Positions 19,852-35,430 of a DNA stretch of 64,000 nucleotides are shown piece after piece. This stretch comes from Anaerolineae bacterium. GTDB lineage: Bacteria > Chloroflexota > Anaerolineae > Anaerolineales > UBA4823. The DNA lies in NCBI GenBank assembly GCA_003327455.1, contig QOQU01000008.1, positions 889-64,888 on the forward strand, given 5' to 3'. Each line of letters opens with the position of its first letter. Within the stretch, counting starts at the first letter, position 1. The translations under genes and the position numbers were made by a program. The notes below the pieces were generated by a model. That model saw only the letters and a program-made list of their open reading frames with translations, was not told the origin of the DNA and searched no databases.

Positions 19852-19942
19852 GGTTTTTGATGACAGAAGTCTATCGTCAAAATTGGTAAAGCGTTGTATC
19901 CTTATACAGGATATGGGATTCAGGAAACTCTCCTGATGCTCA

Positions 19943-20109: not shown

Positions 20110-20145
20110 AAAGAAAAGGGGATGTCTGTTGTCCAGACATCCCCT
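20110..20145 (-). terminator. Intrinsic terminator of the hdr/fumarate-reductase-like operon
   Basis: AGGGGATGTCTG/CAGACATCCCCT 12-bp stem followed on the minus strand by TTTCTTTT. Confidence 0.85.
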
Positions 20146-20170: not shown

Positions 20171-21772
20171 CTAGTCTCGGCGGGCGTAATTGGGAATCAA
20201 GATCGGCGAGCGAACGGCGCCATTGACGCCAATCTCATCCAAAGCCCGATTCCAGCTTTCCAGGTGCGCCAGGGTCGGTTTTCCTGGCTGGCGTTCTTTT
20301 GCCAGTTGGGCAGCCGTCATGCCGGCGCGGCGACCAAACACACAGACATCCAGTAAACTGTTACCCATCAGACGATTCCGGCCGTGCACGCCGCCGCTGG
20401 TTTCCCCGGCGACCAGTAAGCCGGGTACAGTCGTCTGGCAATTGGCATCAATCTTAACACCGCCGTTCTGATAGTGCAAGGTGGGGTAAACCAGGATTGG
20501 CTGGTTCACCATATCAATGTTAAAACGCTTGAATTGACGCACCATGGCCGGCAGAGCTTTTTCGATTGTACCCGCACCGTGGATCAGATCAATCATCGGC
20601 GTATCCAGCCAGACTGCCGGTTGTCCACTTGGTGTGACCACACCCAGATTCCGTTCTTTGCACTCGCGAATGAAGGCAGCCGCCTCGACGTCGCGTGGTT
20701 CCAGGGGATAGACAAACTGTTCGCCTTTGACATTAACTGGTTGGGCGCCCAGACCGCGCACCTTTTCGGTGACCAATTGACCTAAAATCTGCTCAGGAAA
20801 GGCTGCCCCGGTCGGATGGTATTGCATGGTATCCAGAAAGGCCAGTTCGGCACCAACCCGGTAAGCTAAGACCAGCCCATCACCGGTGGCGCCATAATGG
20901 TTCGTAGTCGGAAAGCCCTGATAATGCAAGCGACCACTACCACCGGTTGCCAGGACAACCACTTTAGCCCTGGCATAGAAATAGCGCTCGGTCTCAAAAT
21001 TCATCAAAATCGCCCCACAAACCGCTCCGCGATCATCCAGCACCAGTTCCACCGCCGGGCAAAATTCAATTACATCTATATTGGGACGGTTGCGCACTTC
21101 ATCGCGCAAAACACGCATGATCTCTGCTCCGGTATAGTCCCTTGCTGAGTGCATGCGTTTGATGCTGGTGCCTCCACCGTGTTCTTCCATCATCATCCCG
21201 TCCGGGGTTTTATCGAACATGACACCCAGGCTTTCCAGCCAGGCAATCACAATTGGGGCATCTTTTACCAGTGCTTCCACCAGATCGGGGAAGTTGGTGA
21301 AGTGCCCTCCACCAATCACATCAAGGTAGTGCGTAGCCGGTGAGTCTTCCGGTCGATCGGCAGCCTGAATGCCACCCTGTGCCATCATGGTATTTGCGTC
21401 CCCAAAGCGCAACTTGGTAACCAGGGTAACCTTTGCACCATTCTCTTGCGCCATGAGGGCTGCGCTCGCTCCAGCCCCGCCGCCGCCGACGATTAACACA
21501 TCCGTCTCAAAATCAGGATCGCTTAAGTCGAAATGAGCATCAATGTGCGGCCGCCCTTCAATGACATCCGCCAGTTCAATTGGCATGCGATTGCCTTTAT
21601 AACTACCGATGCGAACCTCGCGCATGCCTGACTCAATGTAATCCGGATGAAATTTCCGGAGCAATTCCTGGCGCTCTTCAAGAGGCATTGCCGGAAAGGT
21701 TTGTCCCAGGCGTTGAGGGCGCGTGGCTTCGACAACCTTAATTTGTTCGAGTAGTTCCGCTGTATAGGTCAT
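20171..21772 (-). CDS. Soluble fumarate reductase/succinate dehydrogenase-family flavoprotein (TfrA/SdhA-like)
   Basis: DVLIVGGGGAG FAD motif, AQGG, QYHPT, TEKVRG, EPRD, LHYQNGG and HGRNRLMGNSL. Confidence 0.9.
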   Translation of the reverse strand: MTYTAELLEQIKVVEATRPQRLGQTFPAMPLEERQELLRKFHPDYIESGMREVRIGSYKGNRMPIELADVIEGRPHIDAHFDLSDPDFETDVLIVGGGGAGASAALMAQENGAKVTLVTKLRFGDANTMMAQGGIQAADRPEDSPATHYLDVIGGGHFTNFPDLVEALVKDAPIVIAWLESLGVMFDKTPDGMMMEEHGGGTSIKRMHSARDYTGAEIMRVLRDEVRNRPNIDVIEFCPAVELVLDDRGAVCGAILMNFETERYFYARAKVVVLATGGSGRLHYQGFPTTNHYGATGDGLVLAYRVGAELAFLDTMQYHPTGAAFPEQILGQLVTEKVRGLGAQPVNVKGEQFVYPLEPRDVEAAAFIRECKERNLGVVTPSGQPAVWLDTPMIDLIHGAGTIEKALPAMVRQFKRFNIDMVNQPILVYPTLHYQNGGVKIDANCQTTVPGLLVAGETSGGVHGRNRLMGNSLLDVCVFGRRAGMTAAQLAKERQPGKPTLAHLESWNRALDEIGVNGAVRSPILIPNYARRD

Positions 21773-21781
21773 GCCAACCTC

Positions 21782-22471
21782 CTAGGCCTCGATCGGGCGA
21801 GCTTTGTAGCGTTCTTTGAGAGCGTTCACATCCATGGATTTCAATTCAGCCAGAGTCTGGTCAAACGCTCCTTGTTGAATCTCCTGAACGCGCTGGTGGA
21901 GATGTTCCGAGCGCGGTGAGAGATAGCGACCATAGAGACGCCGCGCTAAGATGGCAATGTTGTATTGGGGTTCTTCTGCCGGACAGCGAGCCGCGCACAG
22001 GCCACACATAATGCAATCAAACGACATATTGGCAACCGCAGCAATATCGCCGCGCATCGCTGCTGCCATGTATCCTTTTACATTCAATTCTTGCGGACAG
22101 GCTTTGGTGCAGGTACCGCACCCCAGGCAGCGTAAAATCTCCGGATAGATCTGGAAAAGCGTGGAAGCTTGCGCCTGTAGCTGGGCAATGTCGTAAGTGG
22201 CTCGCTTTGCCGGAAAGAAGGGGATTTGCCCCAAATACATCTCTGGCTTGACGACCGTCTGGCAAGCCAATCCAAAGTATAGTTTTGGATCGTCCTTGAT
22301 GCGATAAACGGTCGAGCATGCCCCACAAAAACCGCCGCGACAACCTACGCCGCGGATCAGGGTGTAGCCGGCATATTCCATTGCCTTCATAATCGTCAAA
22401 CTGGAGGGCACATCGTAGCGTTTACCCATGATATAAATCGGGATCAAATCATTTCGTTCAGCCATACGCAC
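21782..22471 (-). CDS. Fe-S subunit (SdhB/TfrB-like; 2Fe-2S plus 4Fe-4S clusters)
   Basis: GCRGGFCGAC...C (2Fe-2S), CLGCGTCTKACP and CIMCGLCAARCP. Confidence 0.88.
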   Translation of the reverse strand: MRMAERNDLIPIYIMGKRYDVPSSLTIMKAMEYAGYTLIRGVGCRGGFCGACSTVYRIKDDPKLYFGLACQTVVKPEMYLGQIPFFPAKRATYDIAQLQAQASTLFQIYPEILRCLGCGTCTKACPQELNVKGYMAAAMRGDIAAVANMSFDCIMCGLCAARCPAEEPQYNIAILARRLYGRYLSPRSEHLHQRVQEIQQGAFDQTLAELKSMDVNALKERYKARPIEA

Positions 22472-22505
22472 TCCTTGAGTATCGATTTACAGATCAAAGA
22501 TCAAG

Positions 22506-23612
22506 TTACTCTCCAACTTCCGTCCATTCATCCGCTTTGAAGGTAACAAGTGGTAAAGGTTCTTCTACATTGCGTCCGGGTAGATATTCGAAGGTCTGCT
22601 GCAAACGTTCGGCAACTGCGCGGAAGACTAACCCAACCGGCAATTCAGACGGACAGGCGTCGGTACACATTCCACAGCCAACACACGAAAGCGCCATGTG
22701 GTTTTGTCGGGTGAGGTGGAACAGCATTGTATCGGGAGGCATGCGTTGAGCGCCTTTCTGACGCGCCCATTCCAGGTATTTCATTGGATCGTGGTCGAAA
22801 ACATGGCTCTTAAAGACACATGTCTTACAATAACAAATCGGACAGACGGTCATACAGTTATGACAGCGGATGCAGGCTGCAAACACGCCGGTAATTCCCT
22901 CGTCTCCCTCTAACCTCGCCCGGATCTCGGTAAAGGCTTGATCGCGAGCCTGTTTTCGAGACGCAATGTACGCTTCGATCGCTGGTGAATGCCCATTTGC
23001 CGCCGAGCCTTGCCAGCCCAGCCTTTCTCCGAGTTCGTCTTGAATTTCGATCCAGATAGCTTGTTCTAAATCGCTCTCCAACAGGAGAATGCGAATGGGT
23101 GCGTTTTCGTAAACAGGTTGTTCGCAAATTTGACATGCCGGACGCAGGTCTGCGTTGGTAAATTCAGATTGCTGGCGGATTGAAGCATAGAGGTCAACCC
23201 ACAGAGGCGCATTGCTGTTGGCTTGCTTGTTTAAATAGGTGGCAGGGGTGTAGGTTCCGGCGCAATCTATTGCCACAACCAACAGGTCTTCCAGGCTGGC
23301 TTGTGCCATTTTGGTCAACTCAACCAGCGCCCGCGCTTCACAGGAACGCAAGACAGCCGCCAGGCGTGGGTGCGGCTTCCGTAAACTGACTTTGCCTGCC
23401 CAGGTAGCCGCATTGACCGGAAGTACTGGCGCAAGGGGATCTGCGTGCTCGAGCAGGGCAGGATCGCTGACCAATGCGGGAGTTACCGCCCCGCCTGGGG
23501 TGCGCATGGGGGTCAGGATAACATCCACAATTTGGTTGTCCAGAAGGCTCTTCAAAAAGCCCTGCAACGCTACCAGGGGCTGATGATTTTCAACGGGTAA
23601 AGAGATCTTCAT
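22506..23612 (-). CDS. FdhB/FrhB-like 4Fe-4S protein (Flx-type partner of Hdr)
   Basis: LRSCEARAL, DCAGT, CQIC, CIRCHNCMTVCPICYCKTC and FHLTRQNHMALSCVGCGMCTDACP. Confidence 0.75.
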   Translation of the reverse strand: MKISLPVENHQPLVALQGFLKSLLDNQIVDVILTPMRTPGGAVTPALVSDPALLEHADPLAPVLPVNAATWAGKVSLRKPHPRLAAVLRSCEARALVELTKMAQASLEDLLVVAIDCAGTYTPATYLNKQANSNAPLWVDLYASIRQQSEFTNADLRPACQICEQPVYENAPIRILLLESDLEQAIWIEIQDELGERLGWQGSAANGHSPAIEAYIASRKQARDQAFTEIRARLEGDEGITGVFAACIRCHNCMTVCPICYCKTCVFKSHVFDHDPMKYLEWARQKGAQRMPPDTMLFHLTRQNHMALSCVGCGMCTDACPSELPVGLVFRAVAERLQQTFEYLPGRNVEEPLPLVTFKADEWTEVGE

Positions 23613-23660
23613 AGTTTCTGCTCTATCTCCATTCGTCTAGATGACCAACCAGCTTGGGTA

Positions 23661-24092
23661 TTAAACAGCCCACATCGCTTTCATTGGGTTTGGACCTTTT
23701 GCGCGCATGGCTTCGGTCATCTCGCGCACCGTTTCAGCAAAACGAGCTCCCTCGCTGGCGCTGATCCAACGCAACCAGACCCGATCTTCATCAAAGCCAG
23801 CACTCTTCAAGATTTCTTTGAGCGCAATCACCCTCCGTCGGGCTTTGTAGTTGCCTTCCTGATAATGGCAATCACCGGGGTGACAACCACCAATCAGGAT
23901 GCCATCTGCGCCAGCTAAATCGGCTTTCAATACATACATGGGATCTACGGCGCCGCTGCACATCAGGCGAATAATGCGCACATTGGGCGGATACTGCAAG
24001 CGACTGGTGCCGGCTAAATCGGCGCCGGTGTAGGTACACCAGTTGCACAGGAATGCAATGATTTTGGGTTCGAATTCGGTCGTTTCTGTCAT
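23661..24092 (-). CDS. mvhD: MvhD/FlxD-type 2Fe-2S protein (hydrogenase delta subunit family)
   Basis: IIAFLCNWCTYTGADLAG, RLMCSG, GGCHPGDCHY and WISASEG motifs. Confidence 0.93.
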   Translation of the reverse strand: MTETTEFEPKIIAFLCNWCTYTGADLAGTSRLQYPPNVRIIRLMCSGAVDPMYVLKADLAGADGILIGGCHPGDCHYQEGNYKARRRVIALKEILKSAGFDEDRVWLRWISASEGARFAETVREMTEAMRAKGPNPMKAMWAV

Positions 24093-24131
24093 CCCTTAAC
24101 TCCTTGCCTTCACGTTAACTTGCGCGCAAAA

Positions 24132-27100
24132 TCAACTTAAAGCTGCATCAATCATCTCAGCAATTTGCAAGTACTCAAAGCCCAACTGCTGGCTGGCTTT
24201 ATTGGGGCAGGCAGCCACACAAGCGCCGCAGCCCTGACACAACACGGCAACCACCTCAGCATACGCTGCACCTGGTTCAAGACGGCGGGCACCATACGGA
24301 CAAACCTCAACACACAATCCACAAGCCGAGCACAGGCGAGGGTTGACCGAAGCAATGATTGGCGTTGCCGTCAGTTGCTTCTTCGCCAGCAGAGAAACCG
24401 CCCGCACTGCTGCGGCTTGCGCTTGAGCAATAGTCTCTTCCATGGCACGGGGCGAATGAGCCAAGCCAGCCAGATAGACTCCATCGGCAGCGAAATCCAC
24501 CGGGCGCAGTTTGACGTGTGCTTCAAGGAAAAATCCTTCAGCCGTCAGAGGCAGTTTCAGTAAGCGGCTCAAGGCTTCATTGCCAGGCTCCGCTTCGATG
24601 CCCACACTCAAAACAACCTGCTCGACACATAGATGGATTTCCTCACCATCTGGTTGGGAAAGCACATGCACCCAGACCCTGCCATCTGAGCTTTCTTCAA
24701 CCTGCGGTGGTTGCTCCGCATCGTACTGCAAGAAAACCACCCCTTGTCGCCGTGCTTCGGTGTAATAGGCCTCGCGGAAACCATAACTGCGCAGGTCACG
24801 GTAGAGGATATAAACTCTGCTGTGCGGCGAGCGGCGCTTGATCTCCAGGGCATTCTTGATTGCTTGTGTGCAACAGATGCGGGAACAATATGGATGATTC
24901 TCATCCCGCGAATCGACACACTGGATCATCACCACCGATTCGGGAGTCGATTGCGCTTCTTTCAAGCGGCTTTCGAGTTCACGCTGCGTAATCACAGCGC
25001 CAATTTCTCCGTAACCATACAGGCGAGTGGGAATTTCGCGCCCACCCGTGGCAACGACAATAACGCCGTGCAATAGTTCTTCGCAAGATCCGTCGGCATG
25101 ACGAATAAGCGACGCGTATTGACCAACGTAGCCGCGTGTTTCGACGACTTCACACTCGGTAAACACCGTAATGCGCGGCTCGTCTCGTATGGCTGCGATC
25201 AGGTTACCCAGCAGTTGCTGAGGATCTGTGCCATCTAAACCGACATAGATATGGCGCAAATTACCACCCAATTCGGCCTGCCGTTCAACCAGATAAACCG
25301 GGAAGCCCTGGCGAGCGATGGATAGAGCTGCAGTCATGCCTGCCAGACCGCCGCCGATAACCATTGCCTGATGCGCCACCTCAAAGCTACCGCGTTGGAT
25401 GGGACGCAGGCGCCGCGCCTTGGCGACTGCCATGGCGACCAACTCCTTGGCTTTCTCGGTAGCAATATCTGGCGTAGCCCGATGCACCCAGGCATCTTGC
25501 TCACGAATGTTGGCAAGCTCAAACAGGTGGGGATTCAAACCTGCTTGCCGGATGGTGTCCTGGAAGAGAGGTTCGTGGGTGCGAGGTGTACAACTGGCAA
25601 CCACCACGCGGTTCAGACCGTGTTCTTGAATTTTAGAAACGATCTTATGTTGGGTATCCTGGGAACAGGTGTAGAGGTTGCGCTCGGCATAGACTACACC
25701 CGGTAAGTTGCGGGCATATTCAACCACCTCAGGAACGTTGACTACTCCCCCGATATTAATCCCGCAGTGGCAGACAAACACGCCGACCCGCGGCTCTTCA
25801 CCACTGATATCGCGTTCTGGTGGGTAGACAGCCTGTCGGGTAAGCGTTCCGCGTCCGCCGGCTAATAACGCCGAAGCCTGGGCAGCAGCACAACTGGCTT
25901 CAATGACCGTTTCGGGAATGTCTTTGGGTTCGCCAAACGCGCCAGCAACAAAAATGCCCTCCCGATTGGTCTGGGTAGGGAGATAATGAGGCGATTCGGC
26001 AAATCCAAACTCATTTAAGTCAATCCCCAAGCGTCGCGCTGTTTCAATCGCTTCCGGTGTAGGTTTCAGTCCTACCGAAAGGACAACCAGATCGAATTCT
26101 TCTTCATGCGGGATAGGTTTTCCTTCGGCGTTGAAGGTCACATAGCTAACGCGCAGGTTGCGGCTACCGGGCACTTCACGCACGCTGGCAACCATACTGC
26201 GAACATAACGCACACCCTGTTCTCTTTCGGCGCGGGCAATATAGGCGTCAAATCCTTTACCAAAGGCGCGGATATCCATATAAAAGATGGTCGGTTGAAT
26301 GCGGCTATCGTGCTCGCGAGCGATAACCGCCTCTTTCGTTGCATACATACAGCAAACCGAGGAGCAATACCCTTGCCCGCAGGCGTTATCGCGCGAGCCA
26401 ACGCATTGAATCCAGGCGATCTTTTCGGGATGGCGCCCATCCGAAGGACGTTGCACCACACCAGCAAAGGGACCAGAGGCGCTTAACATACGTTCAAACT
26501 CAATGCTGGTAACCACATTGGGATAGCGCCCATAACCATATTCAGGCCGAATCTGATCGCTCAAAGGTTGAACGCCGGGCGCCAATAACACTGCCCCAAC
26601 TTCGATTTCCTCAATCCTTTCGACCTGGTTATGATCGATGGCTTTGGCACGACAGGTGTACACACATTGCAGGCACTCCGAGCATATACCACAACTCAAA
26701 CACCGGGCAGCTTCCTCACGAGCTTCTTCTTCGGTCAAGCCGGCATAAACCTCATGAAAGTCCAGCTTGCGCTCGGCGGCTGGACGGGCCTTCATTTCTA
26801 CTCTCGCCCGGCGAGCTGCCTGGGATTCCAATAAACGGGCAGCCACTTCGGTCGGCGTCAATTCCACTTTTGGCGGGCGGACCTTTGGAACAACCAGTGA
26901 CTCACCACGCAGGTAACGGTCGATGGACTGGGCAGCGCGGTGTCCAGCGGCAATGGCATTGACGATAAAGGAAGTTCCAGTCACCACATCACCACCGCCA
27001 AAGATGCCAGGCACATTGGTTGCCAATGTTTCCTCATCTACTTTCAGGAAGCGCCCGCGCACAGTTTCAACTTCACCATTTAAGCAGTCTAATTCCGGAC

Positions 27101-28634
27101 GTTGACCGATGGCAAAGATAACAATGTCGGCCGGGATGACTTCCTCAGTATTCGGGATTTCATCAAAATCCGGTCGACCGTCAATAAAGCCCCTGAAATT
27201 TACCTGCACGCAGCGCACACCGGTGACTTTTCCATCTTCCTGGGTAATTTCCTTGAAAGTGCGAGAGGGGTAAACCGCAATCCCTTCGTCTTCTGCATCG
27301 CGCACTTCCCAATCATGGGCAGGCATGGTCGCGCGGCTTTCCAGACAAGACATTCCAACCCAGCCTGCTCCCAAACGGACTGCACTCATTGCTGCATCAA
27401 TGGCAACATTGCCACCCCCCAACACCAAAACGCGTTTCCCTCTGAGGTCTTGAGCGAGTTTAACTTTGTCCTCCAGGCTGACCTGGCGCAAAAAGTCGGT
27501 TGCGACGGTTACCTGGGGTAAATCAGCGCCTGGAATCGGCAATTTGATGCCGCCATGGGCACCAACGGCAACAAACACAGCATCATAGCCCTGTTTCAAC
27601 AGGGCTGGAATATTTTCAACCCGGCTGTTCAGACGCAGTTCAACCCCTTCAGCAAGAATTTGCTCGATTTCGCGTTGAACCAGTTGGTAAGGCAGACGAT
27701 ATTCCGGTACACCAACTCGCATCATGCCCCCTGCAACGGGCAGGGCTTCAAAGACCGTTACACCATAACCCATTCGCACCAGGTCGAGCGCAGCCGTTAA
27801 CCCTGCCGGTCCGGAACCGACCACGGCAACTTTCTTGTCCTTTGGCTCGACTTCGTTCGTCCACCGAACTTGCTCCTGGCTCAGTTCGCCGCTATCCATT
27901 TTTGACCACACCCAGTCGGCTACAAAGCGTTTCAGCGCCATAATGTTGACCGGCTGGTCGCTTTGATTACGCGAGCAGGCTTCCTCGCAGCGGTGGTTAC
28001 ATACTCGACCACACACGGATGGGAAGGGATTTTCTTCCTTGATCGTTCGGTAGGCATCCAGGTAGCGACCTTCGCGCACCAACGCCACATACCCCTGGGC
28101 GCGTTGATTGATCGGACAGGCATCCCGACAGGGCGCCATACCAGCTTTCTCAATTGCATAGGCGTTGGGAATGGCTTGCGGATAAGGTTTATAGATCGCC
28201 TTGCGTTGAGAAAGACCGCCGTTGAACTCGTCTGAGCGAGGCACCGGGCATGCCGTAGCACAATCTCCGCAACCGGTGCAGGCATCCAGCTTAACATAGC
28301 GCGGCCGACGGCGCACCTTAACCCGAAAGTTACCCGGCTCACCCTCGATACTCTCGACTTCCGAGGTGGTTAAGATGTCAATGTTCAGATGGCGACCGAC
28401 TTCCACCAGCTTTGGCGACATAATGCACATGGCACAGTCATTGGTTGGAAAGGTTTTATCCAGTTGCGCCATAATGCCACCAATGGCTGGCGACTTCTCT
28501 ACCAGATATACTTTAAAGCCGGCTTCCGCCAGATCAAGCGATGCCTGCATTCCGCCAATGCCGGCGCCGACAACCAGAACAGCACCTACCGGTTGTTTCG
28601 TGGTGTTAGGATTCATCGATTCTTCGCCACTCAT
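24132..28634 (-). CDS. hdrA: Large HdrA-type fusion (HdrL-like): HdrA with inserted GltD/NfnB-like NAD(P)H module, fused to a second HdrA
   Basis: N-terminal VLVVGAG...LDKTFPTNDC; inserted CRDACP..CGRVCNHRCEEAC, GSGPAG and GGGNVA; then CSSVCCMY; second HdrA VFVCHCG..SCTPRTHE..GGGLAG..CSRICC; C-terminal 2x4Fe-4S. The start is uncertain (28655, 28634 or 28616). Confidence 0.88.
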   Translation of the reverse strand: MSGEESMNPNTTKQPVGAVLVVGAGIGGMQASLDLAEAGFKVYLVEKSPAIGGIMAQLDKTFPTNDCAMCIMSPKLVEVGRHLNIDILTTSEVESIEGEPGNFRVKVRRRPRYVKLDACTGCGDCATACPVPRSDEFNGGLSQRKAIYKPYPQAIPNAYAIEKAGMAPCRDACPINQRAQGYVALVREGRYLDAYRTIKEENPFPSVCGRVCNHRCEEACSRNQSDQPVNIMALKRFVADWVWSKMDSGELSQEQVRWTNEVEPKDKKVAVVGSGPAGLTAALDLVRMGYGVTVFEALPVAGGMMRVGVPEYRLPYQLVQREIEQILAEGVELRLNSRVENIPALLKQGYDAVFVAVGAHGGIKLPIPGADLPQVTVATDFLRQVSLEDKVKLAQDLRGKRVLVLGGGNVAIDAAMSAVRLGAGWVGMSCLESRATMPAHDWEVRDAEDEGIAVYPSRTFKEITQEDGKVTGVRCVQVNFRGFIDGRPDFDEIPNTEEVIPADIVIFAIGQRPELDCLNGEVETVRGRFLKVDEETLATNVPGIFGGGDVVTGTSFIVNAIAAGHRAAQSIDRYLRGESLVVPKVRPPKVELTPTEVAARLLESQAARRARVEMKARPAAERKLDFHEVYAGLTEEEAREEAARCLSCGICSECLQCVYTCRAKAIDHNQVERIEEIEVGAVLLAPGVQPLSDQIRPEYGYGRYPNVVTSIEFERMLSASGPFAGVVQRPSDGRHPEKIAWIQCVGSRDNACGQGYCSSVCCMYATKEAVIAREHDSRIQPTIFYMDIRAFGKGFDAYIARAEREQGVRYVRSMVASVREVPGSRNLRVSYVTFNAEGKPIPHEEEFDLVVLSVGLKPTPEAIETARRLGIDLNEFGFAESPHYLPTQTNREGIFVAGAFGEPKDIPETVIEASCAAAQASALLAGGRGTLTRQAVYPPERDISGEEPRVGVFVCHCGINIGGVVNVPEVVEYARNLPGVVYAERNLYTCSQDTQHKIVSKIQEHGLNRVVVASCTPRTHEPLFQDTIRQAGLNPHLFELANIREQDAWVHRATPDIATEKAKELVAMAVAKARRLRPIQRGSFEVAHQAMVIGGGLAGMTAALSIARQGFPVYLVERQAELGGNLRHIYVGLDGTDPQQLLGNLIAAIRDEPRITVFTECEVVETRGYVGQYASLIRHADGSCEELLHGVIVVATGGREIPTRLYGYGEIGAVITQRELESRLKEAQSTPESVVMIQCVDSRDENHPYCSRICCTQAIKNALEIKRRSPHSRVYILYRDLRSYGFREAYYTEARRQGVVFLQYDAEQPPQVEESSDGRVWVHVLSQPDGEEIHLCVEQVVLSVGIEAEPGNEALSRLLKLPLTAEGFFLEAHVKLRPVDFAADGVYLAGLAHSPRAMEETIAQAQAAAVRAVSLLAKKQLTATPIIASVNPRLCSACGLCVEVCPYGARRLEPGAAYAEVVAVLCQGCGACVAACPNKASQQLGFEYLQIAEMIDAALS

Positions 28635-28656
28635 GCTCACTTCCCACTCACCCATC

Positions 28657-29526
28657 TCATAGGGCAGCTACTTGCTGCAAGGGTTTAAGCCCGGCAAGCA
28701 GCGGCCGCGGATCGATCAAATGTTTGCTCCACCAATTTTCTGCTTCGGTTAATCCAAAAGCCAGTCCCATCAATTCTGTAAAGTAGAATACCGGAAGCTT
28801 CTGCATTCCACTCTGACGCATCTCGAGGTTGATCTGACATAGGGGACAACTGGTAACAATCGCTGCTGCACCAGCTTCGCAGGCCCGTTCTACTAGACGG
28901 TTTACTAATCGGGCAGCTACGCTGGATTTGGTGAGAGAGAGACCACCTCCGCAACATTCAGTAGCATACGACCATTCAACGGCTTCAGCTCCCAGGGTCT
29001 CCAGCAATTGATTCATCAAGCGCGGATTCTCGGGATTCTCGAATTGGGTTACCTCCGGTGGACGAACCAATAAACAACCGTAATATCCAACCGCTTTTAG
29101 ACCCACTAATGGCCGTTTCACCCGTTTGTGAATGGTATCCAGCCCTACGCCGATTGTAAGTACCTCGAGCAAGGGACGGACGGCGATATTGCCCTGATAT
29201 TGAAAGCCGACAACTTCCTCCAATTCTTTGCGCCGCTCGGGGTCATGGCGCAATTCATAATCGGCGCTCTTATGCCGGTTGAAGCAGGCTGCACACGGCA
29301 TGACAAGGTCGTGCCCTAGCGCTTGGGCTAATGCCAGATTGCGTGCAGGTAATGCCAGGGCAAGCACAGGATTAACGCTGTGGGCAGAAGAGGCGCCGCA
29401 ACAATTCCACTCCTCAAGTTCGTGTAATTCCACCTCCAGGGCTTTGAAGACGGCTCGCACCGAGGCGTCATATTCACAGGCGGTGGATTCGAGACTGCAG
29501 CCTGGATAGTACGTATAGACGCTCAT
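28657..29526 (-). CDS. hdrB: Heterodisulfide reductase subunit B (copy 2)
   Basis: YYPGC, NCCG, CAAC, YYGCLLVRP, ECCGGG and SCPLC (two CCG domains). The start at ATG 29526 overlaps the hdrC stop. Confidence 0.93.
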   Translation of the reverse strand: MSVYTYYPGCSLESTACEYDASVRAVFKALEVELHELEEWNCCGASSAHSVNPVLALALPARNLALAQALGHDLVMPCAACFNRHKSADYELRHDPERRKELEEVVGFQYQGNIAVRPLLEVLTIGVGLDTIHKRVKRPLVGLKAVGYYGCLLVRPPEVTQFENPENPRLMNQLLETLGAEAVEWSYATECCGGGLSLTKSSVAARLVNRLVERACEAGAAAIVTSCPLCQINLEMRQSGMQKLPVFYFTELMGLAFGLTEAENWWSKHLIDPRPLLAGLKPLQQVAAL

Positions 29527-30104
29527 TTTGCCTCCTGTTGGGGAGCGGACTTTACGGAAGCAATCTCTTCTCTGGCAACTGCTTCGGCAGACTTGACAAA
29601 AATACACCTGATCTGATCGCGTCCCTTTATTGTTTTGGGTATGACCGGTACTTTCCCTTTGAGGAATAATTGCAAGCCGCTATCCATATCCGCCAAGAGA
29701 TTCAATGTCCATAACTTGTAGGCAATCAGCAAACTGGCTTCATGGCTGCGGCCCAGGGTCTGCACCACAAATAAGAACAACCTATGGAATTTAGCCGCAT
29801 CGGGTTCAGCCGGCGTTACCCCGCTCCGCAGGGCTTCCATCCGCAACGCATCCATCACCTTGGCGATGTCAATGCCATTAGGACAACGCGTCCCGCAGGT
29901 TTCGCAAGCTGCGCACAGCCAGATATCGTGGCTTCTCAACAATCTTTCCTTCTCCCCCAACTGCACCATGCGCAAGATGCGATCCGGTCCATACTCCATC
30001 TCCTTCACCACCGGGCATCCCGCAGTGCACTTATGGCAGTGGTAGCAGAGGAGAATGGGTTCTCCAGAAAGAGCCTCGACTGTTTGAAGAAAATCCTGGT
30101 TCAT
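29523..30104 (-). CDS. hdrC: Heterodisulfide reductase subunit C (copy 2)
   Basis: CYHCHKCTAGCP and WLCAACETCGTRCP. Confidence 0.92.
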   Translation of the reverse strand: MNQDFLQTVEALSGEPILLCYHCHKCTAGCPVVKEMEYGPDRILRMVQLGEKERLLRSHDIWLCAACETCGTRCPNGIDIAKVMDALRMEALRSGVTPAEPDAAKFHRLFLFVVQTLGRSHEASLLIAYKLWTLNLLADMDSGLQLFLKGKVPVIPKTIKGRDQIRCIFVKSAEAVAREEIASVKSAPQQEAK

Positions 30105-30127
30105 CGTTACCTTCTGATCTTCCCAAC

Positions 30128-31867
30128 TTATACCAACGCGTCCACCATCTCCATCATCTGCTCAACTCGCCAGTTGCGTACCTGACTGGCTTTGTTAGGA
30201 CAGGCGACCACGCAGGCGCCGCAACCCTGACACAGCGCAGCGTTGACGGTGGCATAGTTCCAAATCGGATGAATCTCGCGCGCCCCATACGGACACACTT
30301 TGACGCAGGCACCGCAGGCTGCGCACAATTCTTCGATTACACTGGCAACCAACGGGGAGGCTGTCATCTCATTTTTAGAAAAGAGTTGAAGCACTTTCGC
30401 TGCTGCACCAGAAGCTTGTGAGACCGTCTCGGGAATATCTTTAGGACCCTGTGCTACCCCGGCGAGGTAAATACCTGCGGTCAGGGTTTCCACCGGACGC
30501 AATTTAGGATGCGCTTCGTTGAAAAAGCCGTAGCCATCGGTGCTGATATGCAGCAGTTGCCCAAGTTCAACTGAGCCGTCTGACGGAAGCATAGGGGTCG
30601 CCAGGACTACCAGGTCGGCGGCAATTTCCACTGCTCGTCCCGTCAAGGTATCACTGCCCCATACAATGGTCTGATCGCCTTCGCGGAAAACGCGACTGAC
30701 CTTACCGCGCAAATACAACACGCCATAATCGGTCATGGCACGCTGAACATATTCATCGTAATTTTTGCCTGCCGAACGAATATCAATATAGAAAACATAA
30801 GCCTGCCCCTGCGGAACACGTTCTTTGTAAAGCATGGCTTGTTTTGCCACATACATACAACAGACTTTCGAACAATATGAGACACCATGTTCCGGATCAC
30901 GTGAGCCGGCGCACTGCACAAAAACCACCTCGCGAGCGATCTTGCCATCCGATGGACGACGGATGACATCCCCGGAGCGTAACATTCTCTCAAAGGTTAG
31001 ACCATCCACCACATCGGGGATATCCGCGCCTCCATATTCGGGCAGACGGGCACGGTCATAGGGTTGCCAGCCGCTGGCAACCACAATCGCCCCAACGTCA
31101 AAAGTGTAGGTCAAGGGTTGAAGGTCGTCTAAGGGTACAAGTGGCGCCTGTGCATCAGATGGTTTTTGCCTCACCCTGACGCGGAAGTTGCCCACATAAC
31201 CGGATAAACCTTCCACTTCAGCATTTAGAAGGGTTTGAATACCAGGATGGGAAAGCACCTGCTGGACTTTCTTCTCTAACAAGTCAGGAGCAGCTTGAAA
31301 GTTCAGATAGCTACCGCTAAGTTCAGCCATGCGCCCGCCGAGATGGTCTTGTCGCTCTACCAGGATCACCGGGTAACCGGCTTCGGCAACATCCAGGGCA
31401 GCCTGCATCCCGGCAATCCCACCACCGATTACCAGCGTGCGATGGGTAAGAGGTAAAATCAGCGGCTCGAGCGCCTCGTTGCGCTTAACTTTTTCGACAA
31501 TCGATTCGGTGATCTCAATAGCTTTCTGCGTGGCGGCTTCTTTATCCTGTTGATGCACCCAGGAAACCTGCTCACGTATATTTGCCGATTCGCAGCGGAA
31601 ACCGTTCAAACCAGCCGCTGAGACCGTACGGCGGAATGTCGATTCGTGCATGGCTGGAGAACACGCTGCTACCACAACTCCATCGAGCTGGTATTTCTCA
31701 ATACTTTCGCGAATTAGCTGTTGGCCCGGGTCGGAACACATGTATTTATAGTCGATGGCAAAGACCACATCCCCATTGCGTTGCAACTGCTCCACCACGG
31801 TTTTGACATCCACCGTACCAGCGATATTATGCCCACAGTGACAGACGAAGACTCCAATCCGACTCAT
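30128..31867 (-). CDS. hdrA: HdrA-type flavoprotein (N-terminal CxCG domain, no inserted ferredoxin, C-terminal ferredoxin)
   Basis: RIGVFVCHCG, AACSPAMHE, GGGIAG, QCAGSRD, CSKVCCMY, GPKDIP and two CxxCxxCxxxCP motifs. ATG at 31867 follows GAGGAG. Confidence 0.9.
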   Translation of the reverse strand: MSRIGVFVCHCGHNIAGTVDVKTVVEQLQRNGDVVFAIDYKYMCSDPGQQLIRESIEKYQLDGVVVAACSPAMHESTFRRTVSAAGLNGFRCESANIREQVSWVHQQDKEAATQKAIEITESIVEKVKRNEALEPLILPLTHRTLVIGGGIAGMQAALDVAEAGYPVILVERQDHLGGRMAELSGSYLNFQAAPDLLEKKVQQVLSHPGIQTLLNAEVEGLSGYVGNFRVRVRQKPSDAQAPLVPLDDLQPLTYTFDVGAIVVASGWQPYDRARLPEYGGADIPDVVDGLTFERMLRSGDVIRRPSDGKIAREVVFVQCAGSRDPEHGVSYCSKVCCMYVAKQAMLYKERVPQGQAYVFYIDIRSAGKNYDEYVQRAMTDYGVLYLRGKVSRVFREGDQTIVWGSDTLTGRAVEIAADLVVLATPMLPSDGSVELGQLLHISTDGYGFFNEAHPKLRPVETLTAGIYLAGVAQGPKDIPETVSQASGAAAKVLQLFSKNEMTASPLVASVIEELCAACGACVKVCPYGAREIHPIWNYATVNAALCQGCGACVVACPNKASQVRNWRVEQMMEMVDALV

Positions 31868-31878
31868 CCGTTTTCTCC

Positions 31879-33282
31879 TCAATCACCCACAACTTCTAAA
31901 ACACCTTGTGCCTGGCTTTGGGCATGACGATTTTTTTGGAAGAGCGAAAGCACTTTTGCCGCCGCGCCACTTGCCTGGGCTACAGTTTCGGGGATGTCTT
32001 TCGGTCCTAAAGCGGTGCCAGCCATAAAAACACGTGGCGCGATGCTTAAAACAGGATCCAGCTCCTCGTTGGCGGCGATATAGAAGCCGTTTTCATCGCA
32101 GGGTACACCAAACAAGGCAGCCACCTGGGGATTGGTGGGGCGGGGAATCACCGCGGTGGCTAAAACCACCAGATCCGCAGCAATTTCTACGGTGCGGTTG
32201 CTAAGCGTATCCACCCCTTTCACGATGACCTTATCGCCTTCGCGGAAGAGCTTGCTCACCTTACCGCGCAAATAAATTACGCCATCTTCCTCCATGGCGC
32301 GGTTGACAAATTCTTCATATCCTTTGCCACCGGCGCGCACATCAATATAGAAGACATAAGCCTGCCCCTGCGGTAGACGATGTTTATACAGGATGGCTTG
32401 TTTTGCAGTGTACATGCAACAGATCTTTGAGCAATAAGGGACACCGTGTTCAGGATCGCGCGAGCCACTGCATTGAACAAAAACCACTTCTAATGGCGGT
32501 TTCCCGTCTGAGGGGCGTAAAACTTTGCCTGCTGTCGGTCCACTGGCAGCCAATAATCGCTCAAAAGCCAGGCCGTCGATCACATCCTCGATCTTCCCGC
32601 CCCCATATTCGGTTAATCGGGATTGAGGAAAAAGATCGTAACCGGTGGCGAGGATCACGACACCAACCTTTTCTTCGTAAAAGGTATCTGTTTGGTCCCA
32701 TTGAATGGCGCCGGTCGGACAGAATTTCTCACAAGCCCCACATTTCGGTTTAGCCGGGTTACCTTTGGCATCCACCGCTGGGACACGTCCTGCCTCGATG
32801 TCCCATTTGGATTGCAGGTAACGGCAGTTTGCGGCGTCAATGACGGGCTTGTTGGGAACGGCCTGCGGTGAAAGGGTATAGATGACCTTGCGCGTTCCGA
32901 CTCCCCGCTCAAAGATGGATTCGACCTTGAACGGGCATTTTTCCTGGCATACGCCACAACCTGTACAAAGATCCCAATCAACATAGGCAGCTTTGCGGCG
33001 GATGCGGACGTTAAAGTCACCATTTTCGTCTCGCTCAATGGCGTCAATCTCGCTATAGGTGTAAAGGCGGATATTCTCGTGCTTGCCGGTTTCCACCGTT
33101 CGGGGGGTAAGTATACATTGGGAGCAGTCCAGCGTCGGGAAGGTCTCCGAAAGTTGTGCCATGTGACCTCCAATGGAAGGCTCCCGTTCCACCATAACGA
33201 CTTCATAACCGCTGTTGGCAATATCCAAAGCCGCCTGAATGCCGGCAATCCCTGCGCCAACCACCAAAGCTCGTTCAATCAT
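31879..33282 (-). CDS. hdrA: HdrA-type flavoprotein (begins at the FAD domain, has the inserted ferredoxin)
   Basis: ALVVGAGIAG, LSETFPTLDCSQC, CTGCGVCQEKCP, CGACEKFCP, QCSGSRD, CSKICCMY and GPKDIP. ATG at 33282 follows GGGAGG. Confidence 0.9.
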   Translation of the reverse strand: MIERALVVGAGIAGIQAALDIANSGYEVVMVEREPSIGGHMAQLSETFPTLDCSQCILTPRTVETGKHENIRLYTYSEIDAIERDENGDFNVRIRRKAAYVDWDLCTGCGVCQEKCPFKVESIFERGVGTRKVIYTLSPQAVPNKPVIDAANCRYLQSKWDIEAGRVPAVDAKGNPAKPKCGACEKFCPTGAIQWDQTDTFYEEKVGVVILATGYDLFPQSRLTEYGGGKIEDVIDGLAFERLLAASGPTAGKVLRPSDGKPPLEVVFVQCSGSRDPEHGVPYCSKICCMYTAKQAILYKHRLPQGQAYVFYIDVRAGGKGYEEFVNRAMEEDGVIYLRGKVSKLFREGDKVIVKGVDTLSNRTVEIAADLVVLATAVIPRPTNPQVAALFGVPCDENGFYIAANEELDPVLSIAPRVFMAGTALGPKDIPETVAQASGAAAKVLSLFQKNRHAQSQAQGVLEVVGD

Positions 33283-33302
33283 TGCCGATGCCTCCCATCC
33301 TT

Positions 33303-34172
33303 CTAGGCAACCGTTGCGAGATACGATTCGAATAGGGGACGCGGATCTACACTGTGGTTCTCCATGCCCCAAACCTCGCCGGGCAGGCCGAGCGCTACAG
33401 CCATTAATTGGGTAAAGTACAGCACTGGCAAAGGCTTAACCGCCCACCCACTCACAGCTTGCTGAGGGTAATCAAGGTTGTATTGACACAATGGACAGGC
33501 AGTGACCAGCGCTTGCGCGCCGTGGCGCCGGGCAGAGGCGAGGATATCTTGCGCCAATTGCTGCGGCACATCAGGTTTACTTACTGCCAGATATGAGCCG
33601 CAACACTCGGATTGATAAGGGAAAGTGATCACTTCACAACCTAACGCTTCCAGGCATTCGTGCAAGATATGTGGGTCATCGGGATCATCCAGCTGAATCT
33701 CGCCAGGTGGACGCAATAATAAACAACCGTAGTAAGGGGCGACTTTCAGACCTTTGAGCGGCCGACTCACTTTGCTCTTCAGGGTTTCCCAGCTCAATTG
33801 ATCGCGTAAAAGCTCCAAAAAGTGCGTCACGCGCACCTGGCCAAGATAAGGCTCCTCGGTAAACCAGTTAATCCGTTCGAGGACATCCGGATGCCCCTGG
33901 AGGAAGTTTTGGGTGCGGCGCAAGACGTGGAAGCAAATGGCGCACAAGGTGGTTACCTGTCCGCCTGCGTCTTGTGCCTGGCGGAGCAGGCGGGTGGGAG
34001 CAATTAATGCCATGGCATTGTCGGTAGAGAGAGGAAAAGTTGCTCCACAGCATTGCCATTCTGGTAACTCCTGGAATTCAAGACCCAAAGCTTGGGCAAC
34101 TGCGCGTCCCGAGCGATCATAACCACTGGCTTTGGTTGATAAGGTACAACCGGGGAAATAGGGAATTGCCAT
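33303..34172 (-). CDS. hdrB: Heterodisulfide reductase subunit B (copy 1)
   Basis: YFPGC, QCCG, CAIC, YYGCLLLRP, ECCG and ACPLC motifs. Confidence 0.93.
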   Translation of the reverse strand: MAIPYFPGCTLSTKASGYDRSGRAVAQALGLEFQELPEWQCCGATFPLSTDNAMALIAPTRLLRQAQDAGGQVTTLCAICFHVLRRTQNFLQGHPDVLERINWFTEEPYLGQVRVTHFLELLRDQLSWETLKSKVSRPLKGLKVAPYYGCLLLRPPGEIQLDDPDDPHILHECLEALGCEVITFPYQSECCGSYLAVSKPDVPQQLAQDILASARRHGAQALVTACPLCQYNLDYPQQAVSGWAVKPLPVLYFTQLMAVALGLPGEVWGMENHSVDPRPLFESYLATVA

Positions 34173-34183
34173 GTTCACCTCTC

Positions 34184-34588
34184 TCAGACAGAATACTTGC
34201 GAAAGCCACCGATGATGGCAAGCTGGGGCATTTCAGCTGCCTGTTCAGGAGCAATCTGGTCAGGATTTAACACATTCCCATACTTCTCCATATAGAGTTG
34301 ACGCAGCGCTTCCATCACGCGCGGCAAATCAATTCCTTTAGGACAGCGCGAGACACAGGTGAGACAAGCCGCACAGGTCCAGATGGTCTGAGCCTGCAAG
34401 ACATCTTCCATACCCAATTGCGCCATGCGAATGACTTGATTGGGTAAAACATCCATGCTAAAAGCCACCGGGCATCCTGCGCTGCATTTGCCGCACTGGT
34501 TACAAGCCAACAGGCTCTGACCGCTGATGGTTTCAATGCGACTGACAAACTCGCCACGAACCGTTTGGAGAGAGATTTTTGTACGCAT
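34184..34588 (-). CDS. hdrC: Heterodisulfide reductase subunit C (copy 1, short)
   Basis: CNQCGKCSAGCP and WTCAACLTCVSRCP. Confidence 0.92.
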   Translation of the reverse strand: MRTKISLQTVRGEFVSRIETISGQSLLACNQCGKCSAGCPVAFSMDVLPNQVIRMAQLGMEDVLQAQTIWTCAACLTCVSRCPKGIDLPRVMEALRQLYMEKYGNVLNPDQIAPEQAAEMPQLAIIGGFRKYSV

Positions 34589-35088: not shown

Positions 35089-35100
35089 AAGCTCAAGCAC

Positions 35101-35249: not shown

Positions 35250-35277
35250 TTGAGTGCACTTTACCAATCTGATCCCG

Positions 35278-35416: not shown

Positions 35417-35430
35417 GGAGAGTAAATCGA

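Follow-up and report, generated by a model that had tools for sequence, protein, structure and literature searches.

An eleven-gene operon in a 64,000-nucleotide stretch of DNA from an uncultured Anaerolineales bacterium of hot springs (the window; positions 889-64888 of contig C3, QOQU01000008.1, in a 3.9-Mb, 20-contig, 98%-complete assembly) joins heterodisulfide reductase (Hdr)-type proteins to a fumarate-reductase-like pair of subunits. We favor, with about even confidence, the reading that this operon lets the cell reduce fumarate in the cytoplasm at the expense of NAD(P)H, probably with coupled reduction of ferredoxin. The nearest public relatives of the window are metagenome-assembled genomes of Anaerolineales (Chloroflexota), and its DNA is matched in hot-spring, subsurface, and sediment metagenomes.

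From the observed gene content, motifs, folds, synteny, and absence of anchors, we infer a single complex, its direction of electron flow, its coupling to ferredoxin, and a role for HdrBC. The eleven proteins would form a soluble multi-flavin, multi-iron-sulfur (Fe-S) assembly, with an anchor-less two-subunit fumarate reductase as its catalytic end. NAD(P)H would enter through an NfnB-like module inside HdrL. Flavin-based electron bifurcation, with fumarate taking the place of the methanogen heterodisulfide, would then send one electron stream at high potential from HdrA-type flavins through the [2Fe-2S] cluster of MvhD, an ElpB/FdhB-type adaptor, and the FrdB-like subunit to the FAD of the FrdA-like subunit and on to fumarate; the low-potential stream would reach ferredoxin by way of the ferredoxin domains of HdrA type. 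Overall, this would amount to 2 NAD(P)H + fumarate + Fd(ox) -> 2 NAD(P)+ + succinate + Fd(red). In this picture, MvhD and the FdhB-like adaptor would tether the FrdBA-like pair to that half of HdrL which is of HdrA2 type. HdrA1/HdrA2 together with HdrB1C1 and HdrB2C2 would be a second, asymmetric Hdr core of the assembly, and in some relatives that second core alone may serve the Frd-like pair.

The potential of ferredoxin is near -450 mV. With this value and potentials of +33 mV for fumarate and -320 mV for NAD(P)H (PMC5861303), we estimate that the net reaction releases about 40 kJ for each fumarate reduced. Among bifurcating sites, the two that are best established are the flavins of the NfnB and HdrA types (PMC5861303). 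Because of the potential drop, and because both of these flavin modules are present, coupling to ferredoxin would be the most economical explanation of the gene set.

Results

A Compact Operon without a Hydrogenase, Formate Dehydrogenase, or Membrane Anchor

Eleven open reading frames (ORFs), all co-oriented on the minus strand in the ORF list, run from 34588 to 20171 in the order hdrC1-hdrB1-hdrA1-hdrA2-hdrC2-hdrB2-hdrL-mvhD-fdhB/elpB-like-frdB-like-frdA-like. The operon and its flanking elements comprise the following features.

34589..35059, minus strand: 5' leader and promoter region, about 470 nt, common to the divergent gene
34184..34588, minus strand: hdrC1, HdrC-like, 134 aa, two [4Fe-4S] motifs
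33303..34178, minus strand: hdrB1, HdrB-like, 291 aa, two complete CCG (noncubane cluster) motifs
31879..33282, minus strand: hdrA1, truncated HdrA, 467 aa, with the FAD domain and the inserted ferredoxin domain
30128..31882, minus strand: hdrA2, complementary truncated HdrA, 584 aa
29523..30104, minus strand: hdrC2, HdrC-like, 193 aa
28657..29526, minus strand: hdrB2, HdrB-like, 289 aa, two complete CCG motifs
24132..28655, minus strand: hdrL, 1507-aa fusion of an HdrA1-like half, an NfnB/GltD-like insert, and an HdrA2-like half
23661..24092, minus strand: mvhD, [2Fe-2S] connector, 143 aa, five Cys
22506..23612, minus strand: fdhB/elpB-like Fe-S adaptor, 368 aa, 15 Cys
21782..22471, minus strand: frdB-like, Fe-S subunit, 229 aa
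20171..21772, minus strand: frdA-like, flavoprotein, 533 aa
20145..20117, minus strand: intrinsic terminator, 12-bp stem with 7 G-C pairs, then TTTTCTTTTGT

Two starts were corrected by homology. That of hdrA1 is most likely 33282, not 33372, as homology begins at M31 of the longest ORF, and that of hdrB2 is most likely 29526, not 29607, giving an ATGA overlap with hdrC2. The hdrA2 start likewise overlaps the hdrA1 stop by 4 nt. With the corrected starts, the successive intergenic distances are 5, 20, -4, 23, -4, 1, 39, 48, 34, and 9 nt. Because neighboring genes overlap by 4 nt at most or are separated by no more than 48 nt, and because the set has one strong terminator and a leader of 470 nt, we read the eleven genes as one tight operon. 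The terminator lies 26 nt past the frdA-like stop and is the only strong one in the operon; a terminator-like site inside frdB-like (22355..22335) was rejected as chance-level (18 found versus 16.9 expected), and the other terminator-like hits are also at chance level. In one metatranscriptome study, two short contigs are identical to parts of the operon, one to frdA-like (21539-21759) and one to frdB-like (22197-22353).

An initial annotation of this DNA had given the same eleven-gene order and labels, with close spacing and one terminator. Every ORF was recovered in place, Pfam and NCBIfam domain content agrees with the labels, no gap exceeds 48 nt, and the strong hairpin at 20145..20117 is present. 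The annotation had also claimed that the cluster encodes no hydrogenase, formate dehydrogenase, or membrane anchor, and domain content and a hydrophobicity scan both bear this out: none of the 11 operon proteins contains a hydrophobic 19-mer above 1.7 (Kyte-Doolittle mean), whereas SdhC and SdhD of the same genome score 2.5-3.1. Curated NCBIfam equivalog cut-offs were reached by none of the ten operon proteins scanned (all but HdrL).

On the minus strand, the leader (34589..35059) has no ORF of at least 80 aa; an Rfam scan found no family on the operon strand, and no promoter match rose above chance. Two tandem cyclic di-GMP-I riboswitch aptamers (35096-35186 and 35277-35366, plus strand; 75 and 85 bits versus a gathering threshold of 35) lead the divergent gene (35254-37107), on the strand opposite the Hdr operon. 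The operon leader itself showed no riboswitch or other known RNA; both aptamers belong to the divergent gene. Just past the operon terminator, at 19897-20047, is a hairpin-rich stretch with GGAGGA/UCCUCC loops. A 558-nt metatranscriptome contig (run X25) matches only 19936-19980 of it, with 3 mismatches; the GGAGGA/UCCUCC motif may therefore recur in another transcript or organism.

A Fumarate-Type Active Site in a Distinct Flavoprotein Clade

The FrdA-like protein contains an FAD_binding_2 domain (PF00890, E 2e-72), preceded by a conserved 88-residue N-terminal extension. Aligned to solved complex II and soluble fumarate reductases, it keeps H319, T335, E336, R339, R360, H433, and R467, the equivalents, in the same order, of H232, T244, E245, R248, R287, H355, and R390 of E. 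coli FrdA. This catalytic set is invariant in orthologues and present in all nine of the distant clade members with the extension (T or S at the T244 position). The fumarate/succinate-type active site proposed in the initial annotation is thus supported by alignment, with its predicted catalytic residues intact.

Other features set the protein apart from classical complex II flavoproteins. The position of the covalent 8-alpha-histidyl FAD linkage (His44 in E. coli FrdA) is Asn127, and it is also Asn in 9/9 clade members, so that the FAD is predicted to be noncovalently bound. Only about 35 residues follow the FAD and capping domains, there is no PF02910 match, and the C-terminal helical domain is missing. 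Curated NCBIfam models match well below their cut-offs, the best being TfrA (NF004900, 335 bits versus 718), followed by NadB (TIGR00551, 289 versus 453) and TIGR01812 (280 versus 567). We built a maximum-likelihood tree in which the window flavoprotein was joined by SdhA of the same genome and by 78 representatives drawn from a library of 1.8 billion proteins, labeling the clades by NCBIfam scans of the representatives, not by named TfrA, NadB, or FrdA references. The FrdA-like protein falls in a 21-member clade (SH-aLRT 99), separate from the NadB clade and from the SdhA/FrdA/TfrA clade; TfrA-like representatives group with SdhA/FrdA. These data place it in the fumarate-reductase superfamily, with a predicted fumarate-type active site, and apparently outside every characterized family. 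An AprA-like role was rejected, the AprA match reaching only E 4e-6.

The FrdB-like protein matches Fer2 and Fer4 in Pfam and carries a Cx4Cx2Cx17C [2Fe-2S] motif and two CxxCxxCxxxCP motifs. As both of the latter are full, no 3Fe-4S site is expected. All 12 Cys are invariant in 33 orthologues. The initial label of SdhB-like stands as far as the motifs go, a 2Fe-2S and two 4Fe-4S, and fails to find support beyond them, since similarity to SdhB/FrdB in sequence and fold is weak: in the predicted structure (pLDDT 81), the best Foldseek match is the N-terminal part of a NuoG-type protein, at a TM score of about 0.25, and SdhB ranks 33rd. The protein has no CCG domain of the kind fused to the Fe-S subunit in TfrB; in this operon such domains belong to two other proteins, HdrB1 and HdrB2. 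The two Frd-like subunits are likely to be in contact, because they are fused in a distant clade member, P0122 (727 aa).

The genome also has a canonical sdhC-sdhD-sdhA-sdhB operon, on contig C19, whose SdhA keeps the covalent-FAD His. As sdhCD were found only in this separate sdhCDAB operon and have their own sdhAB, we rejected a pairing of the FrdBA-like proteins with a distant membrane anchor. This answers a question raised by the initial annotation, which had named a partner anchor elsewhere in the genome as evidence that would count against a soluble complex.

An Adaptor Resembling Those That Dock Catalytic Modules onto Hdr

Two Fe-S proteins would link this pair to the Hdr proteins. MvhD is a clear member of FlpD (PF02662, E 6e-52; 175 bits versus a cut-off of 22), and its gene comes after the HdrA2-type half of HdrL in the window. 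The FdhB-like protein keeps 15 of 15 Cys in 35 orthologues and matches Hdr-associated FdhB sequences in the PDB (9t1s_M at E 7e-27, 8rvu_E, and 7bkb_E). Its AlphaFold model (pLDDT 86.8, pTM 0.87) aligns by Foldseek with ElpB (8rvu_E, TM 0.73), with the Hdr-bound FdhB of Methanospirillum hungatei (7bkb_E, 0.71), and, less well, with F420-reducing FrhB (0.45). The window protein itself has no FrhB_FdhB Pfam match even at E 0.1, and 21 of the 35 orthologues match PF04432 weakly. On this structural prediction, it shares the fold, holding four Fe-S clusters, of the subunits by which methanogens attach catalytic modules to Hdr, and its gene lies beside mvhD. In the solved complexes, ElpB/FdhB binds FAD and four [4Fe-4S] clusters; with MvhD/ElpC, it fastens the catalytic module to the domains at the N and C termini of HdrA (PMC12350162). 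That mvhD, fdhB-like, and frdB-like follow one another in a conserved order suggests that Fe-S clusters wire these proteins together directly.

Elsewhere in the genome, a CofD on C18:328211-329110 (plus strand) scores 324 bits versus a cut-off of 257, and coenzyme F420 may therefore be made. This is relevant because the FdhB-like protein is homologous to F420H2-oxidizing ElpB/FdhB; F420H2 might be a second hydride donor at this subunit.

A Split HdrA Pair and a Fused Copy of It

Neither truncated HdrA is complete on its own. HdrA1 aligns to methanogen HdrA at 152-568 (8rvu_a, E 8e-120), without the N-terminal domain and without the C-terminal ferredoxin domain. HdrA2 aligns at 12-247 and 319-651 (E 7.5e-153) and consists of the N-terminal, FAD, and C-terminal 2x[4Fe-4S] domains, without the inserted ferredoxin domain. 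Jointly they hold one copy of every HdrA domain, a complement that fits an obligate heterodimer, as far as sequence can tell, and not the full-length homodimeric HdrA of the HdrABC type.

The same pair recurs, fused, in HdrL. By blastp, HdrL residues 27-171 and 660-919 match HdrA1 at 51% and 37% identity, and residues 956-1504 match HdrA2 at 38%. Between the two parts of the HdrA1-like half, from about 172 to 600, lies an insert of roughly 430-490 residues with 2x[4Fe-4S], FAD, and an NAD(P)H site (Pfam Pyr_redox_2, E 3e-56; Fer4_20, E 2e-22). It matches NfnABC (9bov_A, 303 bits), Thermotoga maritima NfnB (4ylf_B, 262), Pyrococcus furiosus NfnI (5jca_L, 235), and GltD (186), and so appears closest to subunits of the NfnB type, which bind NADPH and bifurcate. 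The initial annotation was therefore right to see an NAD(P)H module in HdrL. The protein agrees with the published definition of HdrL, in which HdrA and pyridine-nucleotide domains share one polypeptide beside mvhD (PMC2702500, PMC5947623).

The motifs of both HdrBC pairs are intact. HdrC1 matches Fer4_8 (Pfam, E 6e-12) and TIGR03290 HdrC (62 bits, under cut-off), with motifs C29xxC32xxC35xxxC39P and C72xxC75xxC78xxxC82P; HdrC2, 44% identical to it, matches Fer4_17 (E 2e-11) and the HdrC model (73 bits) and has two CxxCxxCxxxCP. HdrB1 contains two CCG domains (PF02754, E 1.5e-20), with motifs C11-x31-CC-x34-CxxC and C152-x39-CC-x34-CxxC; HdrB2, 40% identical, matches CCG at E 2e-24 and the HdrB model at 171 bits. 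In neither HdrB is any of the ten Cys that make up the two CCG motifs (C-x31-39-CC-x34-CxxC) missing, so that each pair has the two CCG motifs and two [4Fe-4S] motifs of the HdrABC type, although scores against the curated models of HdrA, HdrB, and HdrC stay under the cut-offs. HdrB1 scores 146 bits against HdrB and 166 bits against SdhE, both under cut-off; the resemblance of HdrB1/HdrB2 to SdhE, an anchor subunit of complex II, is thus a sub-threshold one (166 versus 500 bits). The initial annotation had described a duplicated Hdr set. There are indeed two HdrBC pairs, but the sets are not equal: the Hdr content is best described as a split, complementary HdrA1/HdrA2 pair plus a fused copy of that pair (HdrL), each with an HdrBC.

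The Frd-like Pair Travels with Hdr-Type Genes in Several Layouts

A pattern scan of GTDB genomes gave at least 527 relatives, and the best 80 of them, all Chloroflexota, were mapped with the eleven operon proteins and five extra proteins from one relative. FrdB-like was directly upstream of FrdA-like in 72 of 73 loci. Co-oriented Hdr/MvhD-type genes lay upstream in 56 of the 57 loci with at least 4 kb available, a conserved linkage that supports the association proposed in the initial annotation; MvhD and FdhB-like were both upstream in 44 of these 57. Among the 44 loci with at least 9 kb available, 34 had an HdrL-type gene upstream and 38 an HdrB- or HdrD-type gene. In an even sample of the class, an FrdA-like orthologue was present in 82 of 301 Anaerolineae genomes (52 of 176 genera).

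At least four layouts occur. Type A is that of the window. Type B runs HdrL-HdrA1-HdrD-HdrA2-MvhD-FdhB-FrdB-FrdA, followed by an HdrA fusion-MvhD-HdrL-MvhD block. In type C, frdB and frdA are separated by an acyl-CoA dehydrogenase (ACAD)-like gene and another FdhB-like gene, and type D has hdrC1B1A1A2 and frdBA only. Because the layouts differ, the association of Frd-like with Hdr-type genes appears to be selected for, not just inherited.

Two type D loci, L053 and L099, bear on the substrate. Each reads fumA-fumB-hyp-hdrC1B1A1A2-CBS/ACT-frdB-frdA, ending before a convergent gene, and is headed by class I fumarase alpha and beta subunits (Fumerase, E 1e-118; Fumerase_C, E 5e-59). The fumarase genes at the head of these operons are a clue that fumarate is the substrate. 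In three other loci (L038, L040, and L049), fumarase is about 5 kb downstream; in the window genome, a class I fumarase is found on C8 in an unrelated context, and none is in the window's operon. The CBS-CBS-ACT protein between hdrA2 and frdB-like (L053:8495-9151, plus strand) may be a metabolite-sensing regulator of the complex.

More distant clade members have other contexts. FrdB-like and FrdA-like are fused in P0122, stand alone in P0132, and in P0123 (48% identical) form a three-gene operon with a NuoF-like protein (Complex1_51K, NADH_4Fe-4S; L109-L111:9366-12891, plus strand). From these arrangements, the FrdBA-like pair seems to be a portable two-subunit module. The P0123 operon may encode a simple soluble NADH:fumarate reductase; the L109-L111 contigs also carry flagellar and cytochrome c genes.

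The window genome has three further Hdr-type loci. One (C4:469403-475769, minus strand) has hdrC-hdrB-hdrA (full length)-mvhD adjoining a [NiFe] hydrogenase large subunit; it is Mvh/Hdr-like, in a bacterium without DsrC. Another (C13:35554-47605, plus strand) encodes an HdrA1+A2 fusion of 1085 aa, MvhD, an HdrL paralogue of 1532 aa (50% identical), MvhD, MetV (DUF5981), MetF (methylene-tetrahydrofolate reductase), and an HdrC-HdrB fusion of 474 aa. Judged by its genes, this cluster is the HdrL version of the acetogen MetFV-HdrABC-MvhD methylene-tetrahydrofolate reductase, and it would share one modular logic with the Frd operon: an Hdr/HdrL core with an exchangeable reductase and a nondisulfide acceptor. 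The HdrA-fusion-MvhD-HdrL-MvhD part of the C13 cluster stands directly downstream of frdA-like in type B loci (e.g., L031-L036).

Alternative Explanations

Several observations weigh against NAD(P)H-driven, ferredoxin-coupled fumarate reduction. No enzyme of the Hdr-coupled fumarate reductase type has been purified, the proposed function is read from genes, and the transcript support consists of two short contigs that do not show the continuity of the operon. The SdhB fold of the FrdB-like subunit is not demonstrable in the model, where the resemblance is one of cluster motifs only, and N127, Q132, and E217 of the FrdA-like subunit are apparently in the NadB-like state. In methanogens the MvhD/FdhB arm feeds electrons into HdrA; our model would need the arm to run outward. 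Type D loci, lacking HdrL, MvhD, and FdhB-like, make clear that the MvhD route is not the sole possible connection. The four complete CCG motifs in two HdrB proteins seem to imply a role or substrate that the model leaves unexplained. Finally, neither Rnf nor an [FeFe] hydrogenase, as ferredoxin sinks, was found in the genome, which leaves its [NiFe] hydrogenases as the evident candidates for a reduced-ferredoxin sink.

The CCG motifs raise the possibility of a thiol-mediated enzyme, in effect a split TfrAB. As in archaeal thiol:fumarate reductase, fumarate would be reduced at the expense of a dithiol, either a protein or a compound of low molecular weight, which the FrdBA-like pair and HdrBC would oxidize, and HdrA1A2 and HdrL would re-reduce the disulfide, a free intermediate, with NAD(P)H while reducing ferredoxin. 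All ten CCG Cys are kept in both HdrB proteins, TfrA is the best NCBIfam match of the FrdA-like subunit, in TfrB an FrdB-like part is naturally fused to an HdrB-like one (NF004898 matches), and type D relatives pair only HdrC1B1A1A2 with FrdBA. The canonical-looking hdrCBA-mvhD beside a [NiFe] hydrogenase further suggests some Hdr substrate in the organism. Against this, DsrC was sought and not found in the genome, and was rejected as the partner; no thiol-carrier candidate is conserved across the 80 mapped loci; and, to our knowledge, coenzymes M and B do not occur in bacteria. The FrdA-like protein lies outside the TfrA clade, and the MvhD-FdhB-like-FrdB-like string points to direct wiring. 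We consider this explanation unlikely, and the thiol/disulfide pair that the initial annotation had included is not evident. For the two HdrBC pairs, two roles can be envisaged: they may handle a dithiol by the split-TfrAB mechanism, or they may be an Fe-S route from the HdrA flavin to FrdB-like, as suggested by the TfrB fusion, the existence of SdhE-type subunits, and the lack of an MvhD/FdhB arm in type D.

A plain soluble fumarate reductase without bifurcation has a similarly small chance of being correct. Here the Hdr-type proteins would simply collect electrons from NAD(P)H, reduced ferredoxin, or both, with F420H2 as a possible further donor to the FdhB-like protein, and hand them on to fumarate with no energetic coupling. 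Electron transfer to fumarate is downhill from NAD(P)H and from ferredoxin alike, and an organism without Rnf needs a route for ferredoxin re-oxidation; F420 may be available, given CofD; the distant P0123 has only a NuoF-like partner; and nonbifurcating HdrA homologues exist, such as sHdrA (6tjr), which is among the structure matches of HdrA1 and HdrA2. However, four HdrA-type FAD domains and an NfnB-like module far exceed what simple electron collection demands, and flavins of these two types are the ones best established as bifurcating (PMC5861303).

The separate clade of the flavoprotein, and its failure to pass any curated cut-off, leave slight room for another substrate, either L-aspartate, as in NadB, or a different enoate or acyl compound, in which case the complex would serve a different pathway. 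The NadB-like N127, Q132, and E217 point this way, as do eleven loci with an ACAD-like gene, often with a second FdhB-like gene, between frdB and frdA; these inserted type C proteins could indicate a different or additional substrate. Examples are L013:14289-16486, L065, L077, L082, L088, L090, L097, and L100, where a weakly ACAD-like protein of about 369 aa is usually accompanied by a second inserted protein that is FrhB/FdhB-like, with a 332-aa protein without a Pfam match and a 147-aa ferredoxin upstream. Against this, the full dicarboxylate-binding and proton-donor set is conserved, and fumarase genes head the operon in some relatives. NadA (quinolinate synthase) was not found in the 98%-complete assembly, which would leave a quinolinate role without its partner, and we know of no Fe-S partner subunit for NadB. 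L-aspartate oxidase was rejected as the principal explanation on the absence of NadA, the separate clade, and the adjacent or fused Fe-S partner, and we give the whole family of other-substrate explanations a low probability, below that of the two preceding ones. At E <=1e-30, NadB-like matches in the assembly are limited to the FrdA-like protein of the Hdr operon and the canonical SdhA; NAD salvage may be what this organism depends on.

Reverse operation, in which cytoplasmic succinate would be oxidized to fumarate with co-oxidation of reduced ferredoxin (confurcation) and electrons raised to NAD(P)+, is highly improbable: the wiring is reversible in principle, and the methanogen arm is indeed an electron-input arm (PMC12350162), which would fit succinate as donor, but, judging from the potentials in PMC5861303, the reaction would cost roughly 40 kJ at standard conditions, a normal sdhCDAB is available for succinate oxidation, and fumarase-first operons and the succinate-producing Pseudoclostridium thermosuccinogenes (PMC7282089) fit the reductive direction. 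The bifurcating succinate-oxidizing system that the initial annotation had offered as one option is accordingly unattractive on thermodynamic grounds, in an organism with a normal complex II.

Discussion

A stronger version of our preferred reading, NAD(P)H-driven and probably ferredoxin-coupled fumarate reduction, deserves to be stated, although we hold it only tentatively. All eleven proteins might form one megacomplex, a new bifurcating class of NAD(P)H-dependent, ferredoxin-reducing fumarate reductase with an obligately asymmetric Hdr core made up of the split and the fused pair. Equally tentative is the corollary that fumarate would be its hard-wired acceptor, reached through the MvhD/ElpB-type arm that methanogens use for input.

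Fumarate reduction is normally thought to conserve energy via membrane quinones only. If our reading is correct, the operon would encode a cytoplasmic dicarboxylate counterpart of butyryl-CoA dehydrogenase/electron-transfer flavoprotein, in which the drop from NAD(P)H to fumarate is spent on ferredoxin. It would add a new class of acceptor to Hdr-type bifurcation, and would provide the first defined acceptor for the orphan HdrL-MvhD-FdhB-like module, which is widespread and occurs abundantly among Chloroflexota, syntrophs, and sulfate reducers. Energy conservation by quinone-independent fumarate reduction in fermenting Anaerolineae would be explained as well. Since about a quarter of the sampled Anaerolineae genomes are concerned, fermentation models of this common sediment, hot-spring, and digester group would be affected. 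The operon is a compact eleven-gene test case from a thermophile-type habitat, with natural minimal fumAB-hdrCBA1A2-frdBA versions available for comparison.

Relation to Known Systems

The novelty implied by the initial annotation must be set lower, since Hdr/Flx-coupled soluble fumarate reductases have been proposed (PMC7282089, PMC6315080) and the HdrL-MvhD-FdhB-like trio has been described in Syntrophobacter (PMC5947623). In the literature on Anaerolineae/Chloroflexi HdrL and HdrA-fumarate reductase, we found no description of the Anaerolineae arrangement. The closest proposal is the "succinate operon" of P. thermosuccinogenes, with fumarate hydratase, FlxABCD-HdrABC, and a two-subunit fumarate reductase, for which PMC7282089 cites a 2019 preprint by Koendjbiharie and van Kranenburg. 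A Flx-Hdr-coupled, ferredoxin-reducing fumarate reductase was proposed there, with co-expression data but no enzymology (PMC7282089). The likeness is considerable: a soluble two-subunit fumarate reductase with Hdr-type bifurcation proteins, the same proposed coupling of NADH, fumarate, and ferredoxin, and a fumarase-first order in related Anaerolineae operons, L053 and L099 having fumAB. The window operon differs in having HdrL, with its NfnB-like insert, instead of FlxABCD (it has no Flx genes), an ElpB/FdhB-like adaptor, a split HdrA, and two HdrBC pairs, and in lacking fumarase.

HdrL, MvhD, and FdhB-like stand beside HdrABC, without a hydrogenase or formate dehydrogenase catalytic subunit, in the HdrABC/HdrL cluster Sfum_0819-0824 of S. 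fumaroxidans (PMC5947623) and with the HdrL that Desulfobacterium autotrophicum encodes (PMC2702500). No catalytic reductase is joined to the clusters in these two bacteria, and DsrC was suggested as acceptor; here a Frd-like pair follows directly and DsrC is absent from the genome. The docking logic, from catalytic module through a four-cluster FdhB/ElpB subunit and MvhD/ElpC to HdrA, is that of FdhAB-MvhD-HdrABC(-Fmd) of M. hungatei (7bkb) and ElpABC-HdrABC of Methanothermobacter marburgensis (8rvu; PMC12350162), and HdrA2 and the C-terminal half of HdrL keep the arm-carrying N- and C-terminal HdrA domains. In the archaeal complexes, however, HdrA is a homodimer, the arm donates electrons from formate or F420H2, and these end up on the heterodisulfide; in the window operon the HdrA proteins are fused or heteromeric, and the attached module is of fumarate-reductase type, so that the arm would have to run outward.

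TfrAB of Methanothermobacter, as cited in PMC6315080, is likewise an anchor-less fumarate reductase with noncovalent FAD, combined with HdrB-type CCG domains, and TfrA is the best curated match of our flavoprotein. In tubeworm symbionts, tfrAB is interspersed with flxABCD-hdrABC (PMC6315080). The FrdA-like protein differs from TfrA in missing its cut-off, belonging to another clade, and having no C-terminal domain, and the system has its CCG motifs on separate HdrB proteins and no coenzymes M and B. A bacterial Hdr core with MvhD, an NADH donor, and a nondisulfide acceptor is found in MetFV-HdrABC-MvhD of Moorella thermoacetica, where the low-potential acceptor and the role of HdrBC are likewise unsettled (PMC5861303). 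Its acceptor module is MetFV instead of an FrdBA-like pair and there is no FdhB-like adaptor. The window genome also has an HdrL-MvhD-MetV-MetF-HdrCB cluster. In the QmoABC-AprAB system of sulfate reducers, an Fe-S subunit and a flavoprotein from the fumarate-reductase superfamily receive their electrons from two different HdrA-like flavoproteins together with an HdrC-like protein. QmoC, however, is membrane-bound and quinone-linked, the substrate of AprA is adenosine 5'-phosphosulfate, and AprA is only distantly related to the FrdA-like protein. Set beside all of these, what is particular to the operon is its HdrL input instead of Flx, its ElpB/FdhB-type adaptor, its split-plus-fused HdrA pairs with two HdrBC, and the distinct clade of its flavoprotein.

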